Below, piece by piece: positions 42,759 to 59,914 of a stretch of 64,000 nt of DNA (position 1 is its first letter; every line of letters starts with the position of its first letter). A program made the translations under genes and the position numbers. The notes under the pieces were generated by a model. That model was given only the letters and a program-made list of their open reading frames with translations, had not been told where the DNA came from and ran no database searches. This stretch comes from Candidatus Stahliibacteriota bacterium (GTDB lineage: Bacteria > Hydrothermota > Tepidihabitantia > SM23-42): positions 55-64,054 of the forward strand of contig JAUWCU010000003.1 in assembly GCA_030609135.1 (NCBI GenBank). The letters run 5' to 3'.

Positions 42759-45069
42759 ATGAAAAGAGTGGTCATTGGGATATGTGCAATAGTGATAGGG
42801 TTTATGCCCTTGTCCATCTATGGTTCTGAAATTGCAACTGTAACTTTGGAAACCTGGATGAATGCTTCCCAGGGTTTTGAACCAAACCTTGGTCAGATTG
42901 GCGATTTTGAAGGGAATGTGGTTAATAATATCTTGTGCGCTTTCAAGGGTAATGGACTTGGTATATTCATTAATGAAAAAGGGGTAAGTTATGTTATTTA
43001 TCAAGCGGAAAAAATCTTAAGAGATGAGTCCCAGAGAATTGATTTAAGAGAACCTGAAAAAAATCTTATCCACTATGCAAGGATTGATGTGGAGCTTGTG
43101 AATTCCAATTTTGAAAAGTCAAAAATCGTTTATGAAGATGAGCTACCCGGATATGCGCATTATTATTTGCCACAATGTCCTGATGGTATTCTTTATGTGA
43201 AAAGTTTCAGAAAGGTGCGGATTAAAGAGATATATCCGGGCGTTGACTGGATATGGAAATATGAAGATGGACGGTTGCATCATGAATTTGAGGTCAAACC
43301 TGCGTCTGATGTTTCAAAGATAAAGATGAAGGTTAAATGGGCTGATGTTGAGATAAGCGAAAATGGTAGAAAACTTATATATTCTACGCCACTTGGTAAG
43401 ATAAAAGATGGAAATATACTTGGTTATGAAAATCCGAAATCCAAAATCCGAAATCCGAGACCGATTGATATTTCTTATATAAAAAATGAAGATGGGATAA
43501 TTTCCTTTGAAATAAAGAATTATTCCGGTAAAAATCCTCTAATTATTGACCCACCCCTTGCACTATTATGGGGGACATATTACGGAGGCAATGATCCTGA
43601 TCGTGGCTATTCAATTACAACCGATAATTCAGGTAATATTTTTGTAACTGGGACCACTTATTCAACAGAATTTTCCCACACAAGACCCCGGTGGTGGTGC
43701 TTATTATCAAGGTACAAAAGCAGGATATTTTGATGTATTTGTTTTAAAGTTTACAAATACAGGGGTTCGGCTTTGGGCGACATATTACGGAGGAAATGAC
43801 AGAGATGGGGGCGCTTCAATTATAACTGACAATTCAGGTAATGTTTTTGTAGGTGGAACCACCTATTCAACAGATTTTGCCACACAGGACCCTGGCGGTG
43901 GTGCTTATTATCAAGGAACATTTGCAGGTGTTGGTGATGCATTTATTTTGAAGTTTACAAATGTTGGTATTCGCCTCTGGGCAACATATTACGGCGGAAA
44001 TGATAGTGATATGGTGTGTTCGATTACCACTGATAATTCAGGTAATGTTTTTATAACTGGGTGGACTCTTTCAACAGATTTTCCCATACAGGACCCTGGC
44101 GGTGGTGCCTATTATCAGGGAGCAAATGCAGGTTATAGAGATGCATTTATTTTGAAGTTTACAAATACGGGTGTTCGTCAATGGGCAACGTATTACGGAG
44201 GAAATGCTGGTGATTGGTGCAATTCAATTACAGCGGATAGTTCAGGTAATGTTTTTATAGCCGGATACACCTATTCAACAAATTTCCCCACATATGACCC
44301 CGGGGGAGGTGCTTATTATCAGGAAACACTTGGAGGTGTTCATGATGCATTTATTTTGAAGTTTACAAATACCGGTGTTCGGCAAAGGGCGACATATTAC
44401 GGCGGAAATAATGAGGATATGTGTAATTCAGTTACAACTGATGCTTCAGGTAATATTTTTGTGACTGGATACACTTTTTCACCAGATTTTCCCACATATG
44501 ACCCCGGGGGAGGTGCTTATTATCAGGGAGCACTTGCAGGCGGATATGATGCATTTGTCTTGAAGTTTACAAATAGCGGTATTCGCCAATGGGCAACGTA
44601 TTACGGAGGAAATGATGTGGATTGTGGCTTTTCAATTAAAACCGATAATTCAGGTAATGTTTTTGTAACTGGACTAACTGTTTCAACAAATTTCCCAACA
44701 CAGGACCCTGGCGGTGGTGCTTATTATCAGGGGACACATGCAGGTGTTGGTGATGTATTTCTTTTGAAGTTTGAAACTTCACTGGGAATTGTAGAGGAAA
44801 ATACTAAAAAGAATGAGCCTTCGGTTCTAATTATTTCTTCTATCTTTATCAACAGAATACGAATAGACCTTTCATTATCTTCTAAAAAACCCATGGCTCT
44901 TATCCTTTATAATTTATTGGGGCAGAAAATCTTTTCAAGGTCTTATCCTGAAACTAAGTCTCTTATTATAAGAGGCAGAGAGATTGAAGAATTGAGTAAA
45001 GGAATATATTTCTTATCTGTCTATTCAGGAAAAAAAGAGATTGGCAGGGTTAAGCTGATAAAGAGATAA
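42759..45069 (+). pseudogene. SBBP beta-propeller-repeat surface protein with T9SS-type C-terminal sorting domain, interrupted by a 1-nt frameshift near 43668-43670
   Basis: Track ORFs 42717..43733 and 43948..45069 are one gene. Frame +1 from 43669 reads [42 protein letters not shown].., continuing the repeat. Start at ATG 42759 (AAGGAGG; signal MKRVVIGICAIVIGFMPLSIYG). The tail is ..[22 protein letters not shown]. Confidence 0.75.
43569..44780 (+). repeat. Six tandem 204-nt (68-codon) coding repeats (SBBP modules)
   Basis: W/R of (W)ATYYGGN falls at 43569, 43774, 43978, 44182, 44386 and 44590. The extra nucleotide in the first interval is the frameshift. Long stretches look near-identical at DNA level between modules. 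Confidence 0.85.
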
Positions 45070-45126
45070 AGGCTCCATGTTTGCGCGTTGGTTTAATAAT
45101 AACTTTGTAATAATTGGAGGTGTGCG

Positions 45127-47931
45127 ATGGGGCGATTTAAGGTAATTCTTATCGTGATTGTAATCTATTTAATGGCTCAGATTGTTTTTGCTGAGCCCAC
45201 CGCAAAGACTTATATCTTTGCCGCATCCCAATATATGTTTTACCATCCCTGGTATGGTGGAAACCCTCTGGATTCGCTTTGCAAACACTTTGATGTGATT
45301 ATCTTTCATGACTGGAATAGGGATACAATCCCTACGATTCGGGATAGCACAAAAGTAGAATGGCGTAGAAATAATGCGCCAATACTTTTATTGTATAAAG
45401 ATGCAATGACTATATGTGGTCCAGGTCGTCCCTGGCATCCTGAACCAGACCCGACAATTGGTGGTCGTGAAACTGTTGGTGGGTATAATCATTTTGATTC
45501 GTTATTAAAGCAAAATTACCCGTCAGATACTTTCTTTATGTTAGCGACGACCGTAGGTTCTCAGCAAACTTCCCATTATGATACCATCGTTATCGGTAAT
45601 GATACTCTGCATCGTGTCAAGGCTGGTAGTGATCCCTCCTGGCAGTGGCGCTGGGCAATGGCATACGGTGAGTCATACTGGCGGAATTTTTATGCCTGCA
45701 CCACCAAGGTGCAATGCCTGCGGAATTATGCAGACACAACTTATGATGATACCTATTTTGACGGTGTACTCATTGATAATTTGTTACCCTTAAGAAGTCT
45801 GCATGGCTTATATCCACAACAATATCCCGACAATAACAGTTTTAGAGAGGCGGTTTATTCTTTCACCCAGACCGCCTGCTCTGAATATCATAATCTTACA
45901 TCACCTCCGGGTAATCCCCGTTCAATTCTTGGTACTGGCAATTTGAACTATATTTACTTAACACCTCTAAGTGATACAGTATGGAAAAAGCTTCTCCATA
46001 TTTTAGATGGCGGTATGGAGGAAGGCTCAGATGGCTTACACAGATTGTCTTTTAATGACTGGCATAGAATTATGCAGGAAATTGCAATGGCTGAATCTTT
46101 AGGTAAGATATCTTTTATACGTGAGGCAGTTGACTCATGCGAATACGATACAATTATCAATCCCTTTGGATTACTTTCGTTTAGTTCTACAAATCTGATG
46201 TTTGGTTTTACAAGTTATCTTATGGTCTTTGATTCTATGGCGCACTTCTATTTTTGTCCACGGGAAGGTCCGCATTACGCGTTTATCTGCTGGGCGCCAG
46301 TCTTAGATATTGATATTGGTAAGCCAATGGGGCGGTACATCCTGACCGCAGACACCCTCGCATATCGTTATTATGAAGGTGCAGCAGTATTTGCCAATCC
46401 GTGCAGTCTTTCATCAGTAACTGCAGGTTTCCCCGGTGATACTTTGTTGTTCATAAAGACAGCATCCTGCACAGTGGATGTTACAATTGACCAGTTAATA
46501 CTTCCTTCTCATACAGGGGTAATTGGACTTTATCCATTAAACTATTTCCAGGCAAGCGGTTTTGAGCCTGATGACCGTTTGTGCTGGGAGAACTACTGTC
46601 TTGAGGTTGAGGGGGTTACAAATTGCTATGCAAAAAGAGTGCAGGGTATTCCGCCAAACGGTGTGACACCACATTCCGGTCAATGGATGTATAAGGTTTA
46701 TGGTCAGGATGAGAGCACTGATACAAGTTTTGTCAGCTTCAAGGTCTTTCCGTACGATGTGCTGATTGAAGATCCCACTTATCTGTCTTTCTGGATATAT
46801 GTTGAAGATGCACCCGGCGATTCAGCACCGATTGGTATAGACTGTCTACTAAAGAGCGGCAAGCGGTTGAGTGAGTGGACAAAATTTGGCACGATTTTAG
46901 ACCAGTATGGTAAAGAAATAAATCCCGCTGACCGCCGTGTGCCCGAAGGTGCGTGGTATCAATATGTGTTTACATTTAACCCGGCAGTCAACGAAACGAT
47001 TGACCACATTGAGTTGGTTTATGATGGCTCGCAGATTTCAGAGACCGGCGATTTTTGTGCGTATATTGATGATATAGAGATACTAACTCAATTCCCGATA
47101 CTCGATACCTGGTATGCGGAGAAGTTTCCGGTTGGCAGTCCCATCAATAATCCTAACAATTATGACCCGAACTTCTATATGAACTTCATTGCTCAAGGCG
47201 ATTCTGTTAGATTGATTATCAATCCACAGGGTGATGGTGGTGAGGGTGCGCACTGGGTTAACCCGGCGCCAGGGATTAGAAACAACATTACTGATATTTC
47301 TGTTGATTCATTCACAACAGTCATCTGGAGTCAGTATGATAAGGCACACAGTCTGATTCTTTCGCTATTTGTCCATGATAACCAGGAGAATAACCGATGG
47401 CTTATGTATGCAAAGAATGCGAGCAATTGGTGGCCACAAACCGGCTGGGTTGATATGGGAGATACGGCGAGGCATTATAATATGTGGGAAGGGTTTTTTA
47501 GGAACATTAGAGATGATTATACTGCGGAATACGGCGGTGAAGTTGAACCCGAATCTATCATAGAGTTGAGACTGGAGCACTTTGCCCGGTCAGAATGGGT
47601 TGGTGATTCCGGTGGGACAATCAGGAATCTTTTCATCGTGCCCTTCACCCAGGAATTTACCATAAATCAAAATCAGACCTATACCAATATGCCATATGTA
47701 GCACTGAGGACCAAAGTGACTTCTGAGATTGTGGACTCAATGAATATCCATCAGGATTATAGCGATTCGCTTACGGATTCTACTGGCTGGATTGCCTATG
47801 ATACTTCCTATTGCTGGTATCTGCGAGAGGGAGAAGGAAACAACACAGTTTATATTCAATACAAGGTTGGTGGTTTCAGCGAGAGTCCGGTCTATTGCGA
47901 TACCATCATCTTTGATAAAACTTTGACTTGA
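45127..47931 (+). CDS. 934-aa secreted protein; N-terminal half possibly a GH114/GHL-type TIM-barrel glycoside-hydrolase-like domain, C-terminal half unknown
   Basis: Signal peptide MGRFKVILIVIVIYLMAQIVFA (GGAGG upstream). The YFDGVLIDN motif and polysaccharide-locus context are the only basis for the hydrolase guess. Confidence 0.35.
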   Translation: MGRFKVILIVIVIYLMAQIVFAEPTAKTYIFAASQYMFYHPWYGGNPLDSLCKHFDVIIFHDWNRDTIPTIRDSTKVEWRRNNAPILLLYKDAMTICGPGRPWHPEPDPTIGGRETVGGYNHFDSLLKQNYPSDTFFMLATTVGSQQTSHYDTIVIGNDTLHRVKAGSDPSWQWRWAMAYGESYWRNFYACTTKVQCLRNYADTTYDDTYFDGVLIDNLLPLRSLHGLYPQQYPDNNSFREAVYSFTQTACSEYHNLTSPPGNPRSILGTGNLNYIYLTPLSDTVWKKLLHILDGGMEEGSDGLHRLSFNDWHRIMQEIAMAESLGKISFIREAVDSCEYDTIINPFGLLSFSSTNLMFGFTSYLMVFDSMAHFYFCPREGPHYAFICWAPVLDIDIGKPMGRYILTADTLAYRYYEGAAVFANPCSLSSVTAGFPGDTLLFIKTASCTVDVTIDQLILPSHTGVIGLYPLNYFQASGFEPDDRLCWENYCLEVEGVTNCYAKRVQGIPPNGVTPHSGQWMYKVYGQDESTDTSFVSFKVFPYDVLIEDPTYLSFWIYVEDAPGDSAPIGIDCLLKSGKRLSEWTKFGTILDQYGKEINPADRRVPEGAWYQYVFTFNPAVNETIDHIELVYDGSQISETGDFCAYIDDIEILTQFPILDTWYAEKFPVGSPINNPNNYDPNFYMNFIAQGDSVRLIINPQGDGGEGAHWVNPAPGIRNNITDISVDSFTTVIWSQYDKAHSLILSLFVHDNQENNRWLMYAKNASNWWPQTGWVDMGDTARHYNMWEGFFRNIRDDYTAEYGGEVEPESIIELRLEHFARSEWVGDSGGTIRNLFIVPFTQEFTINQNQTYTNMPYVALRTKVTSEIVDSMNIHQDYSDSLTDSTGWIAYDTSYCWYLREGEGNNTVYIQYKVGGFSESPVYCDTIIFDKTLT

Positions 47932-47975: not shown

Positions 47976-48027
47976 GTTATTGCGAGCCCACACACCAATG
48001 CATTGGTGTGCGGGCGTGGCAATCTCT
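47976..48027. terminator. Palindromic repeat between convergent genes (bidirectional terminator candidate)
   Basis: ttattgcgagc-CCACACACCAATGCATTGGTGTGCGG-gcgtggcaatctct; a 'cattgcgag...ggcaatct' family unit with a 10-bp perfect palindrome core. Confidence 0.35.
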
Positions 48028-55270: not shown

Positions 55271-56567
55271 ATACTTCAAAAAATCTTTTGTAACTTACGT
55301 TAATCTACTTCTGCGATTAGTGTTACTTGCTGGCAGTAACGTAATTATTGCAAATTATTTAGGTCCGTCTGGTAAAGGTATTCTATCATTAATTATGAGC
55401 TTTCTGGCAATCATTTTGATGATTGGAATGTCTGGTGTTGATGAAGCTAACGTGTATTTTATGAGTAGTGGAAAAGCACCGCATAGAAAAATAATCACGA
55501 ATGCCTTATTTCATACATTTTTTATTTCATGTATTTGCATTTTTATTTGTATAGTCTTTATGAAATGGTTCATTACGAATCCACTGAAAGGGATAGATAT
55601 CAAATATTTTTATATAATAATCATGCTAATTCCTTTTTATTTCATTAACCAACATTTTAGAAGTATTTTATTGGGCCATCGTGCAATATATAAATACAAT
55701 ATTCTTATAATAGCACAATTTATCGTTCTCTTTCTTATTCAGTTAATTTTTATACCGAAAACAGGTTTATTTGGAGGTATTTTGGCGATTATCGTTAGTA
55801 CTTTTACACTTACACTTTTAGGGTCAATATTATTGTTGAAATATGAATTACCTGGAATTTCTATCGACTTTTCGTTGATGAAAAAATCATACTTTTTTGG
55901 CATGAAATCTCAGTTAGGCATTATTTTTAGTTTTCTAAATCAACGACTGGACTTTTTTGTTGTTAATTTTTTTCTCAACCCTTCTCAGGTTGGTATATAT
56001 GCAATAGCTGTTGTAGTTGCTGAACTACCGTGGCACCTGCCTGCGGCTGCGGCAACTGTGCTGTTCCCATGGATAGCTGATAAGAATAAAGATGAGGCTG
56101 CAAAATTTACAGCATATATCTTGCGTAATATTCTATTTTTTACAACCATTATGATAATTGTGTTAGCATTATTTGGTAAATATATCATTATTACATTATT
56201 TGGTGCAGCTTTTCAGGGATCTATTGTCTTAATGTATGTACTTTTACCTGGTATTTTAGCACTCAGTATAACCAGAATACTCGGTAGTCATTTTCAGGGT
56301 TCAGGGAGACCAGAATTAGGAACCATAATGGTTGCATTTTCATTTATTGAAACTATCGTTCTTGATATAATACTTATTCCACGTTTCGGAACCTTAGGAG
56401 CTGCAATAGCTTCATCAATAGCTTATATGACTTCCGCTATCGTGGGACTATTTATATTTATAAGAATATGGCATATTAATATATTTGAAATCGTAATTCC
56501 AAGGTGGCAAGAGATAATTAAAATCCGTAAATTTATACAAATTTTAAAAAGGAGTAAGAACAAATGA
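55263..56567 (+). CDS. wzx: polysaccharide flippase (MOP/Wzx family)
   Basis: 434 aa, ~12 TM segments, overlaps neighbours by 8 and 4 nt. Confidence 0.7.
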   Translation: MIEYFKKSFVTYVNLLLRLVLLAGSNVIIANYLGPSGKGILSLIMSFLAIILMIGMSGVDEANVYFMSSGKAPHRKIITNALFHTFFISCICIFICIVFMKWFITNPLKGIDIKYFYIIIMLIPFYFINQHFRSILLGHRAIYKYNILIIAQFIVLFLIQLIFIPKTGLFGGILAIIVSTFTLTLLGSILLLKYELPGISIDFSLMKKSYFFGMKSQLGIIFSFLNQRLDFFVVNFFLNPSQVGIYAIAVVVAELPWHLPAAAATVLFPWIADKNKDEAAKFTAYILRNILFFTTIMIIVLALFGKYIIITLFGAAFQGSIVLMYVLLPGILALSITRILGSHFQGSGRPELGTIMVAFSFIETIVLDIILIPRFGTLGAAIASSIAYMTSAIVGLFIFIRIWHINIFEIVIPRWQEIIKIRKFIQILKRSKNK

Positions 56568-57610
56568 AAAAAAGATTGCTTCTCTCTACACCATTTGGCG
56601 CACCTGGTCCAATGACTGCGTTCAGAAATCATAAGGCTATATTAGAACCATATATCGCATGTGATCTTGTTCCCTTGGAAGAGTTGGTATCTCCATCGTT
56701 TTTGAAACCGATAGACTATAAACGAATAATTTATCGTATAGGCAAAAGAACAAAAAGGATTTTTTCTGTTAAAAACATAATGAAATATGGTGATAATGTT
56801 ATTTTTGGTACTTTTGGTTCTGTTCATGAAGGAATAATCAAAAAATTGAATAAACATGGAATAAAACCCTCTTTCATGTGGTGCAGTACATTAGGCCAGA
56901 TGGAATTGACGCCATATGAAATGAGAAATTTCATGCGATTAGTTGAACTTCGGAAAAAAGGCTACGTTAATTTTCTTTTTCTTCAGCATCGATTATATAA
57001 TTCCGTTGGGCATTTTGTGAAAGAAGCCACACTTCTCCCTTACAGCATTGATTTATCACCTTACAAAGTTTCAGAACAAATCGAGCTTCCCGGTATAAAC
57101 ATAGATCTTTTTTGTCGACCACGTCAGGGTAAAAATATTCTTAATCAGATCGCCTCGTTTACTATGGCTGGCATCAATGGTAAACTTCATATTAACTTTA
57201 AAACGGATTTTCTCTCAGGTATACCGAATTTACTATCTAAAAAAATTGTTTACCATAAGTGGATCCCTGATTCTATGTATTATAATTTTATCGCAGGGAT
57301 GAACCTTTCATTGCAGGTTACAATTGGCGAAAGTTTTAATTATGTTGCATGCGAGCGGATGTGTCTTGGGGTACCTGTTCTAACAACGAAGGATATATAT
57401 CTTGTTGCGGGTGATGATTTTTTGGCTAAATATCTTTGTGTTGAAGCACCAGATACACCTACCACTATAGCAGCTAGGATTAAATTTTTAATTGATGAGA
57501 ATAATTTAAGAAAGGAACTTGCTATAAAATGTAGATCAAGAATAAAAGATATTGCCAGATGTAATAATAGCATGGTTGTTGATATAATACAAAAACATTT
57601 CAATACGTAG
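56564..57610 (+). CDS. Hypothetical protein, distant GT-B glycosyltransferase-like
   Basis: ..GESFNYVACERMCLGVPVLTT.. resembles the E-x7-E region; otherwise unassigned. Confidence 0.35.
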   Translation: MKKRLLLSTPFGAPGPMTAFRNHKAILEPYIACDLVPLEELVSPSFLKPIDYKRIIYRIGKRTKRIFSVKNIMKYGDNVIFGTFGSVHEGIIKKLNKHGIKPSFMWCSTLGQMELTPYEMRNFMRLVELRKKGYVNFLFLQHRLYNSVGHFVKEATLLPYSIDLSPYKVSEQIELPGINIDLFCRPRQGKNILNQIASFTMAGINGKLHINFKTDFLSGIPNLLSKKIVYHKWIPDSMYYNFIAGMNLSLQVTIGESFNYVACERMCLGVPVLTTKDIYLVAGDDFLAKYLCVEAPDTPTTIAARIKFLIDENNLRKELAIKCRSRIKDIARCNNSMVVDIIQKHFNT

Positions 57611-57730: not shown

Positions 57731-59914
57731 ATGGGAATAAAAAGGTCAATCGGGTGTCGAAAATTGATGCTTCTTTGCATTTTACCTTTGTTATTATGCG
57801 CCAAAACCGTACGCTATGAAGCAGAGCATTTATTCGCGCGGTCGCCTTGCGACAGTGTTATCAAAGATGTCACAGCAAGTAACGACAGTTGTAGGGTAGC
57901 ATATACAAAACATAATTCCAGAGGGTATTTAATATATGGTCCAAACATTTCTTTCTCTTCTGGATTCTATGTGGCAACATTCAGATTAAAAACAGGAAAT
58001 GTTGGTGTTAGCGTTAATCCTGTTGGTATAATAGACATAACTAGCCGTCGTGAATATCCGCTTAAATATCATGCACGACAACCAATTTATGCATCCAGCT
58101 TCGATTCAATCTTCAGGTGGCAGAACATAAGGGTCGGCTTTTATCTTGAACGTACCATCGAGTGCTTTCAATTGAGAATTGAGTGGTTTGATAGTGTGGA
58201 TCTCTATGTCGACTATGTTGATGTTCAGCCGTATCCGCGCAGAGAGAATATCACATTTGCCATTAATCTCCAGGATCTCAATCTTGATATGATACCAGAC
58301 CTTTTTGATGAAATTATGACAGATCGTCGCATATTGCTTGCATCAATCCAGGCCGGTGTCAACAGAGATAAGGCAAATCTTGTATTACTGCACGATTACC
58401 GCGATTACGAAGGGCAGGGTATTTATCGATGGCTTTGTGCTTTCGACATGCCGTACGTTTTACTAACATATGATGAGTGTATCGAGAAATCAGCAATACC
58501 TAACACGTTTAATGGCTGTGTTTTTTTCGATCCTGGAGAACTCTCTATAGACGCAATAAATAATCCGCCAGAATATCAAAAGTCGCTTTTTCAAGTAAAA
58601 GCAATTGCGACAAATCTAGCAGCTCTCGACTCTCTATTAATTGTTACACCTCGAACAATTAATGATATTGACTTGACAAAATTCCCAATTAAATACGACC
58701 TCACAAATAGAGATATATATCCCTTTTTGAAAGACCTGTCTGGGGATGAAGCGATGGCTTTCAACATACAGTTGTTTGAAACGTATAGATTTAACAAAGA
58801 TGTCCTGTTTAAGTTGTTTCCCTATATGAGTAGTAGTCCATTAAGAAATGCGAGTGAAAAACTGACCGATTATGTCATTCAAAATAGATGCTGGTCTTTC
58901 TATAAAGATCTGCGTAATGATACTGATAATTCTTTTTTTGAAAATGAGGTATTCAACCAGAGCCATTTTCTTATGGGGTGGCCTGATGAGGGTTGGACCA
59001 ATGAGAGTACACACTATTGCAAAGAATACGAGCATATTAAGTTGGCAAGTGAAGCAGGTAAACTGTGGATAGGTGATATGAATAGGATACACAACCTTTC
59101 ATTTTTCGCGAGATTGCCAAATGACATACATTATATCTATCGCCAATCTGCCCCTCAAATTCCAAAACTGGAACACAAGACATATATTTCTTTTATAACA
59201 ATGGATGGTGATAACCCTCTACTTTGGCTCAAACATTATCGTAGAGATTGGGATTCACCTCTGCGGGGAACAATTCCTGTTTCCTGGGGGATTCCACCCA
59301 AGCTTTTGGATCTTGCGCCGGCTGTTCTTCAGTACTTGTATAGGACGAAAACGCAGAATGACTACTTTATTGCAGATATCAGTGGTCTTGCATGGCATCT
59401 GACAGACCATTTTGATTTCAATGATTTTCCGGAAATGTTAATTGTAACTGCTGATTATCTTGAGAGACTCGATATTAGAGTTGTCAAATTGATGGCTGAT
59501 CGTAATGATGATATTGTAGATATTGCGTACCTTCGGAAATGCGTAGAAGGATATCCAGATGTGAGTGGTTTTGTTGAAGGATACTGGCCTCCCGCGGAAC
59601 AGGGATATGTAATGGTGAAAGAAAAATATCCGTCCATTAGACTTGCAGTACACGAGCCTCGCGGCAATGGTGGAGTGTACAGGGTCGTAGATTCCATTGA
59701 ATCAGTTATTGAAGCAACGTCAAATCGACCACTATTTTTGCCAGTTATATATAATATTTACAGTGATAGCTATCGAAAAAGAAACCAAACATTATTTGAT
59801 AAACTTGATAGTATAAGAACAATTTTGGATGATAAACATCAAACTATCGTATATGTACGTCTGGATGTTATGATGGAGTTAATAAAGGAATATAATGAAA
59901 CGAGCAGTAAATGA
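57731..59914 (+). CDS. 727-aa secreted protein of unknown function
   Basis: Signal peptide ..RKLMLLCILPLLLCA. No catalytic motif recognised; ..SGFVEGYWPP.. faintly recalls the GxGYxYP family. Confidence 0.3.
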   Translation: MGIKRSIGCRKLMLLCILPLLLCAKTVRYEAEHLFARSPCDSVIKDVTASNDSCRVAYTKHNSRGYLIYGPNISFSSGFYVATFRLKTGNVGVSVNPVGIIDITSRREYPLKYHARQPIYASSFDSIFRWQNIRVGFYLERTIECFQLRIEWFDSVDLYVDYVDVQPYPRRENITFAINLQDLNLDMIPDLFDEIMTDRRILLASIQAGVNRDKANLVLLHDYRDYEGQGIYRWLCAFDMPYVLLTYDECIEKSAIPNTFNGCVFFDPGELSIDAINNPPEYQKSLFQVKAIATNLAALDSLLIVTPRTINDIDLTKFPIKYDLTNRDIYPFLKDLSGDEAMAFNIQLFETYRFNKDVLFKLFPYMSSSPLRNASEKLTDYVIQNRCWSFYKDLRNDTDNSFFENEVFNQSHFLMGWPDEGWTNESTHYCKEYEHIKLASEAGKLWIGDMNRIHNLSFFARLPNDIHYIYRQSAPQIPKLEHKTYISFITMDGDNPLLWLKHYRRDWDSPLRGTIPVSWGIPPKLLDLAPAVLQYLYRTKTQNDYFIADISGLAWHLTDHFDFNDFPEMLIVTADYLERLDIRVVKLMADRNDDIVDIAYLRKCVEGYPDVSGFVEGYWPPAEQGYVMVKEKYPSIRLAVHEPRGNGGVYRVVDSIESVIEATSNRPLFLPVIYNIYSDSYRKRNQTLFDKLDSIRTILDDKHQTIVYVRLDVMMELIKEYNETSSK

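Follow-up and report, generated by a model that had tools for sequence, protein, structure and literature searches.

The enzymes of family GH168 in the CAZy classification are endo-alpha-1,3-L-fucanases, retaining glycoside hydrolases (GHs) in which a (beta/alpha)8 barrel is joined to a small C-terminal beta-sandwich (PMC12210190, PMC12534559, PMC11685898). Here we describe a gene at positions 45127..47931 (+ strand) of a 64,000-nucleotide stretch, the window, of contig JAUWCU010000003.1 (assembly GCA_030609135.1) from a Candidatus Stahliibacteriota bacterium. An earlier note, made from the sequence alone, had seen in its product a secreted protein with a faint resemblance to polysaccharide hydrolases. 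We consider it likely that the protein has lost its C-terminal part and belongs to a family, specific to WOR-3, of GH168-like retaining glycosidases that are displayed by the type IX secretion system (T9SS), with appendages resembling carbohydrate-binding modules (CBMs) and immunoglobulin (Ig) domains. To our knowledge GHL15, as GH168 was formerly named, has so far been known only as marine endo-fucanases, and we know of no cultured members of WOR-3/Stahlbacteria.

The catalytic head and its relationship to GH168

Searched on its own against Pfam-A, NCBIfam and PDB sequences, the target protein (P0001) gave no match, even at permissive thresholds. Homologue searches recovered 17 protein clusters out of 5.8 billion, and the existence of 16 homologous clusters besides the target's own puts the gene far beyond chance and confirms it as real. 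A third word-index search with a profile of the 17 N-domain sequences added no further members. In a motif-based scan of 185,579 species genomes, relatives were found in only three metagenome-assembled genomes (MAGs), of which two are named 'candidate division WOR-3' and the third 'Candidatus Stahlbacteria'; four paralogues occur in a single one of these MAGs.

Residues 23-467 (45193..46527, + strand) constitute a divergent GHL15/GH168-like catalytic domain, as judged from orthologue matches to Pfam, profile searches of the PDB, hhalign and Foldseek, and are predicted to fold into a (beta/alpha)8 barrel (~25-400) and, C-terminal to it, a small beta-sandwich subdomain (~405-467). Four orthologues (P0002, P0004, P0005 and P0006), 47-63% identical to the target, score 27.6-54.7 bits against Pfam PF14885 (GHL15) over profile positions 12-271 of 271. 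The gathering threshold of this model is 27 bits, and because the orthologues pass it the GHL15 homology of the target holds by transitivity. When the 17-sequence N-domain profile was searched against all PDB sequences, it matched 9nhf (E 1.5e-6), 9jom (8.2e-6), 8rg5/8rg3 (~0.01) and 9jos (0.8) and nothing else, with the alignments to 9nhf and 9jom spanning about 135 residues; a sub-profile of the short paralogues was less sensitive. All of these entries are GH168 endo-alpha-1,3-L-fucanases (PMC12210190, PMC12534559, PMC11685898). Alignment of the N-domain family to MeGH168, the sequence of which was taken as printed in PMC12210190, gave an hhalign probability of 94.6-94.8%. The AlphaFold2 (AF2) model of the N-domain, built from the 17 sequences, has a mean confidence (pLDDT) of 49.7 and was used as a fold query only; in it alternating beta/alpha elements are followed by seven strands at 412-468. 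With this low-confidence model Foldseek returned 9nhf at the top (E 2.6e-5) and as the sole match at E<=1e-3, GH191 and other GH barrels being weaker.

The motif YFDGVLIDN (residues 210-218), which the earlier note had likened to those of GH114/GHL-type hydrolases, corresponds to the beta4 nucleophile motif of a GHL-type TIM-barrel hydrolase. That guess was right in kind, the predicted fold being a GHL TIM barrel, and is refined as to the closest relative, which is GHL15/GH168 at about 20% identity: the family profile and Foldseek, run on the N-terminal half as the note had advised, both point to GH168. An assignment to GH114 proper was rejected because the PDB entries automatically named 'GH114 TIM-barrel domain-containing' are GH168 enzymes.

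The predicted nucleophile is D217 (codon 45775..45777, + strand), the last residue of FDGVLID, which aligns with Asp167 of MeGH168, and the predicted general acid/base is E299 (codon 46021..46023, + strand) in the LDGGMEE motif, which aligns with Glu237. D217 is invariant in 17 of 17 family members and E299 is kept in all 16 sequences covering that column, an acidic pair of the kind that was to be sought across homologues. By alignment the target therefore has the catalytic Asp and Glu of GH168. It also has the conserved Asn and Trp near subsite -1 (N218/W332 in WfGH168_II), as hhalign pairs N272 with Asn213 and W389 with Trp330 of MeGH168, the numbering offsets having been checked. N272 is invariant in the family; the column of W389 holds W in eight sequences, R in five, and L and Y in one each.

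Several observations weigh against this placement. The target itself has no PF14885 match even at E<=10 and no PDB sequence match. Confident alignment to GH168 is limited to the C-terminal ~135 residues of the barrel, from about residue 290, so that the pairing of E299 with Glu237 is of high confidence and that of D217 with Asp167 of lower confidence; the nucleophile motif aligned only in a relaxed hhalign run and in a sub-threshold HMMER segment. Half of the clade has R or L in place of W389, and the N-domain model, at a pLDDT of 49.7, is too poor to place the catalytic pair.

Export signal, C-terminal modules and truncation

The open reading frame (ORF) begins with ATG and runs for 934 codons and a stop; no overlapping ORF of at least 80 aa was found on either strand across 45127-47931. 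A Shine-Dalgarno-like GGAGGTG (45117..45123, + strand), read from the sequence, lies 3 nt 5' of the ATG, and 57 nt separate the ATG from the end (45069) of the preceding ORF, which carries an SBBP domain and a T9SS tail. Residues 1-22 (45127..45192, + strand) were recognized by inspection as a Sec (SPI-type) signal peptide with predicted cleavage at VFA/EP. The N-terminus, MGRFKVILIVIVIYLMAQIVFA|EPTAKTY, combines a basic n-region (MGRFK), a 17-residue hydrophobic core and an A-x-A-like site, and the AEPTA(R/K)TY junction is kept in nearly all homologues with a complete N-terminus; P0012-P0014 carry variants. Both inspection and conservation thus give the target the N-terminal Sec signal peptide that is expected of T9SS cargo. 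The reading frame, the signal peptide and the 57-nt gap were all as the earlier note had described them, and its description of the protein as secreted agrees with the conserved junction.

The C-terminal half was said to hold no nameable motif and no sorting tail. It does lack both a Pfam match and a tail, but it is not featureless. Module A (residues 468-662; 46528..47112, + strand) is a CBM-like beta-jelly-roll, delimited by profile scan and modelled by AF2 at pLDDT >95; module B (663-848; 47113..47670, + strand) is a second CBM-like beta-jelly-roll, 93% identical to that of P0008; and module C (849-934; 47671..47928, + strand) is an Ig-like beta-sandwich repeat by profile scan and AF2. The AF2 model of the whole half, from a 69-sequence alignment, shows the two jelly rolls and the Ig-like sandwich with a pLDDT of 90.6 and a pTM of 0.81. 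A HMMER search with the C-half profile against 1.84 billion representatives found 440 matching proteins, in which local domain mapping shows A, B and C to be independent, each occurring alone, in tandem or as A+B pairs in other large proteins. Module C reaches up to ~20 copies in other giant surface proteins, and A+B pairs come after Peptidase_S8 or CBM_4_9 domains, usually before T9SS tails. The sequence and structure searches proposed for this half thus lead to mobile modules shared by hundreds of proteins, subtilases included. Modules A and B have the jelly-roll fold of CBMs in the predicted structure and belong to no named CBM or Pfam family; among 69 module sequences searched against Pfam there were no significant matches, and only marginal ones to DUF3047 and Cleaved_Adhesin. 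We regard A, B and C as accessory modules that probably bind glycan, not as a second enzyme.

In the full-length members P0007, P0008 and P0009 (~1660 aa), module C is followed by a second Ig-like module, a beta-sandwich, a propeller of NHL/SGL/Vgb_lyase type and a Por_Secre_tail. Shorter layouts exist: P0005 (922 aa) consists of the N-domain, A, B and the C-terminal sorting domain (CTD), and P0012-P0014 (~450 aa) of the N-domain only. The sorting domain scores 29.7 bits in P0005 and is matched by PF18962 in P0009, and P0007 and P0008 align to the same C-terminal motif. The target has neither Por_Secre_tail nor TIGR04183. It ends '...IIFDKTLT' and a stop codon exactly where P0008 reads '...IIFDKTLPTGSF...' (orthologues 'FDKTLPTGSF...'), and no remnant of the missing ~740 residues (the NHL/CTD region) was found anywhere in the window. 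Because all other complete members with C-terminal modules carry a T9SS CTD, the absent tail marks a truncation within a family of T9SS cargo.

Identity between the target and P0008 rises along the protein, from 50% in the head through 76% in A and 93% in B to 100% in C, and the DNA of the C-terminal half is only ~82% identical. As B and C retain 93-100% protein identity at ~82% DNA identity, purifying selection appears to have acted up to the stop codon of the target, and on these sequences purifying selection is much stronger on the accessory scaffold than on the catalytic head. Recent transfer as the source of the high C-terminal identity to P0008 was rejected, given the DNA identity of only ~82%. 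At two homologous loci the long gene is split into adjacent ORFs (L002, 7991-9913, 1022+640 aa; L008, 4522-7032, 682+836 aa), which reflects either frequent frameshifts in these MAGs or genuine gene fragmentation.

Partner gene, cassette and rival readings

The gene upstream of the target had been taken for a separate SBBP gene. It is the 3' part of a single gene encoding DUF7948, an SBBP propeller and a T9SS CTD (42717..45069, + strand), orthologous to an 838-aa protein at L002. In the window this gene is broken into two ORFs (42717-43733 and 43948-45069) by a 1-nt frameshift near 43672. The frameshift falls in a 204-nt tandem repeat (5.9 copies, 43568-44772), of which one unit fewer aligns than in L002. 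The same gene also contains a 7-nt tandem repeat, AAATCCG x4, at 43429-43458.

Pairing of the family with a propeller-CTD gene is conserved. At L001, L002, L003, L006 (twice), L007, L008 and L011 the immediate upstream gene encodes a conserved propeller protein of ~550-600 aa, 55-88% identical between loci; the proteins of L001 and L002 and one of the two L006 copies gave T9SS-tail matches, and the remaining ones have the same sequence at the C-terminus. In L002 a DUF7948-SBBP-CTD gene stands just before this propeller gene, and in the window and, colinearly, in the WOR-3 MAG Kmv43 (L010) the DUF7948-SBBP-CTD gene is itself the immediate neighbour. The co-occurrence with propeller and T9SS genes that was proposed as a check is therefore seen as adjacency at eight loci (L001, L002, L003, L006, L007, L008, L010 and L011). 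The idea that the target is paired with a T9SS-exported propeller protein holds for this adjacency and falls short in one respect, in that the family is itself T9SS cargo and not merely paired with it. In another metagenome (L006, 7706-17473, and also L007) the cassette occurs twice in tandem: a propeller-CTD gene and a GHL15 copy broken into pieces of 103 + 435 aa are followed by a second propeller gene and a copy of >1354 aa. The fragment P0010 and the truncated paralogue in the window begin at the same conserved Met.

A perfect sigma-70 consensus (TTGACA-17-TATAAT; 42659..42687, + strand) 5' of the DUF7948-SBBP gene is, as a consensus match, a candidate promoter of a two-gene operon. Promoter motifs in the region as a whole are not more numerous than expected from shuffled sequence. 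The 57-nt gap itself showed neither a promoter nor a terminator motif, and co-transcription of the target and its partner is plausible. A 30-nt palindrome (47986..48015, strandless; 15-bp arms, one mismatch, no loop) in the 122 nt that separate the target from a convergent epimerase gene is a possible bidirectional terminator.

Further upstream, 41631..42578 (+ strand) holds a catalytic-domain paralogue truncated at both its 5' and 3' ends, with an ORF at 41679-42578 (299 aa, P0016). The truncated paralogue mentioned in the earlier note was thus found, with 48% identity to residues 138-395 of the target head (E 2e-75). Homology covers only residues 123-395; P0016 has no signal peptide, and nothing in the family corresponds to its last ~36 residues (from ~264). 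A tract of the target upstream of and including the nucleophile motif (45645..45791, + strand) is 93% identical to positions 41762-41908 of the paralogue, with 101 nt at 100%, and is probably a gene-conversion tract, or else an assembly chimera. Together the three genes make a 6.3-kb cassette in which the outer genes are the 5'-truncated paralogue and the 3'-truncated target and the middle gene is frameshifted. A search for flanking repeats or a break in GC content, as signs that the cassette was inserted, found neither.

It also tells against our interpretation that the locus may be decaying or mis-assembled, as the missing CTD, the frameshift in the partner and the shortened paralogue suggest. 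Taken further, these features would make the target a non-functional remnant or an assembly artefact of a 1660-aa gene, a reading that is not exclusive of the others. The target lacks the CTD present in every other complete member carrying A and B, the paralogue has lost both ends, a 101-nt tract is identical in the two copies, the contig is metagenome-assembled, and split genes recur at the homologous loci L002, L006 and L008. However, the 2.8-kb frame is intact and comes with a signal peptide, a ribosome-binding site and all invariant residues, the near-identity of B and C to P0008 at a much lower DNA identity speaks for purifying selection to the stop, and shorter layouts (N-only, ~450 aa; N-A-B-CTD, 922 aa) occur as natural variants. 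We hold this reading, of remnant or artefact, to be unlikely, while taking it seriously.

A different proposal is that the enzyme is dedicated to processing of exopolysaccharide (EPS), trimming or releasing the polymer of a Wzx/Wzy locus in the manner of PelA, Sph3/Ega3, PgaB or PslG. Around the cassette the window encodes epimerases, a methyltransferase, three family 4 glycosyltransferases (GT4s), Wzy_C, a Wzx-type flippase, a GNVR protein and a putative hydrolase of the GxGYxYP family, so that the cassette does lie inside a polysaccharide locus, as the earlier note had stated; the short paralogue P0012 also adjoins a GT4. Several members of GH114, GH135, GH166 and GH191 are encoded in EPS loci. 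The enzymes of these related TIM-barrel families are endo-galactosaminidases whose substrates are the exopolysaccharides GAG and Pel (PMC12054363). However, of the seven loci with flanks long enough for an assessment, six showed no polysaccharide context, the exception being that of P0012. The orthologues at L001, L002, L003, L006, L007 and L008 lie outside EPS loci, next to a phosphate ABC transporter with a two-component system, peptidase C11/asparaginase, RecJ, Cu-oxidase_4 and V-type ATPase. The window cassette is bounded by truncated genes and looks inserted or rearranged, not native to the locus, and a T9SS CTD, an NHL propeller and CBM-like modules are typically found in degradative enzymes displayed at the surface. 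Because the context is not kept at six of seven judgeable loci, the EPS-processing role that the earlier note suggested for the enzyme is weakly supported, and we consider it improbable.

Three other genes of this region may be recorded here. The GxGYxYP gene (57731-59914; PF14323/PF20958) encodes another putative glycoside hydrolase of this Wzx/Wzy locus and is adjoined by an unannotated 348-aa ORF (56564-57610). Just upstream of the polysaccharide genes, an M1-family peptidase (37166-39016) has a weak match to a T9SS sorting tail (E 0.039) and may be another T9SS cargo.

That the target is a true GH168 endo-alpha-1,3-L-fucanase, depolymerising sulfated fucan for nutrition, is most improbable. 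In its favour, GH168 endo-fucanases are the sole detectable solved or characterised relatives, the target aligns with them at the catalytic Asp/Glu and at the conserved Asn/Trp close to subsite -1, and the family layout fits extracellular T9SS cargo with binding modules like that of marine polysaccharide degraders. Against it, the relationship is remote, at 19-20% identity, the Pfam model does not recognise the target, and the residues that recognise sulfate are not alignable with confidence. GH168 enzymes recognise the 2-O-sulfate at subsite -1 through a 'polar knuckle' Lys and Tyr99/Asn101 on beta3. In the relaxed hhalign run no such Lys could be assigned in the target, and Y120/D124 came to stand opposite Tyr96/Asn98 of MeGH168 with confidence values of only 1-2; fucanase specificity is not supported because these residues cannot be reliably aligned. 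The families of fucoidan utilisation loci, the typical context of GH168, were not found in the window (32.8-61.5 kb) or at L001-L003 and L006-L009, where no sulfatase, fucosidase or SusC/D-like gene occurs within ~10 kb. The MAG names (WOR-3/Stahlbacteria, e.g. Kmv43 and CSMAG_2384) give no pointer to algal habitats, though they are names only.

Proposed function and comparison with known systems

If the target is, as we think likely, a truncated T9SS-type GH168-like glycosidase, it would be exported by Sec as a four-part protein with a GH168-like head, two CBM-like modules and one Ig-like spacer. The head would most likely cleave an alpha-linked polysaccharide by retaining double displacement, with D217 on beta4 (FDGVLID) as the nucleophile and E299 on beta6 (LDGGMEE) as the acid/base, while modules A and B would anchor the protein to a glycan. 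The canonical ~1660-aa form, whose gene directly follows one for a propeller protein with a CTD, would be exported by the T9SS to the cell surface. Because the window copy has lost its propeller and sorting tail, it would reach the periplasm but probably not the surface.

A bolder view, which we regard as speculative and rather unlikely, is that the WOR-3 clade constitutes a new glycoside hydrolase (sub)family with a non-fucan substrate. It would form a two-gene surface module of a propeller-CTD protein and a GH168-like/CBM-like/NHL-propeller/CTD enzyme, with a head diversifying fast (paralogues at 40-60% identity, gene-conversion tracts) on a near-invariant scaffold (93-100%), and modules A and B would be two new CBM-like families common to glycosidases and subtilases. 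If true, such a pattern of fast head and fixed scaffold would suit remodelling or recognition of cell-surface glycan better than bulk polymer degradation, and a substrate other than fucan would widen the specificity range of the GHL15/GH168 TIM-barrel family.

With D217 and E299 named and domain boundaries set, what was a 934-aa 'hypothetical protein' becomes an enzyme candidate that can be tested, and GHL15/GH168 is linked to the candidate phylum WOR-3/Stahlbacteria. The analysis also flags two widespread accessory-domain families that have no Pfam model and occur on glycosidases and proteases of T9SS organisms. This is an advance at the level of annotation, not a new kind of system, and the known systems to which it is closest are as follows.

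The endo-alpha-1,4-galactosaminidases of GH114, GH191, GH166 and GH135 (Ega3, TmGH191, the PelA hydrolase domain, Sph3) have in common with the target family a TIM barrel with an Asp nucleophile and a Glu acid/base (predicted here), and GH191 is among the weaker Foldseek matches; an association with exopolysaccharide is a further likeness. Unlike the GH168 enzymes, however, true members of GH114 or GH191 gave no match at the sequence level. Multi-domain T9SS glycosidases and proteases of the FCB group, together with the 'CBM-like' domain of the Neobacillus novalis GH92 enzyme (7NSN), are also close systems, from which the target differs in that its modules A, B and C are covered by no Pfam model and assigned to no CBM family and the window copy has no CTD.

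From GH168 itself (MeGH168, 9NHF; Fun168A/WfGH168, 8YA7 and 9JOM; PbFucA, 8RG3-5) the target is set apart by an identity of only ~20% and its failure to match the Pfam model. The target family has a large conserved insertion (residues ~95-190), and residues ~25-125 of the target lie N-terminal of the matched start of the Pfam model (profile position 12). Two CBM-like modules, an Ig-like module, an NHL propeller and a T9SS CTD are not described for GH168, and the target family comes from WOR-3, not from Bacteroidota, Planctomycetota or Verrucomicrobiota, and lacks a fucoidan-utilisation context. Even so, GH168 is the family to which the head is most alike, with a profile E-value of 1.5e-6 and an hhalign probability of ~95%: both are secreted, both have a conserved Asn on beta5 and Trp on beta8, and the Asp nucleophile in DGxxxD on beta4 and the Glu acid/base on beta6 of GH168 are predicted in the target as well.

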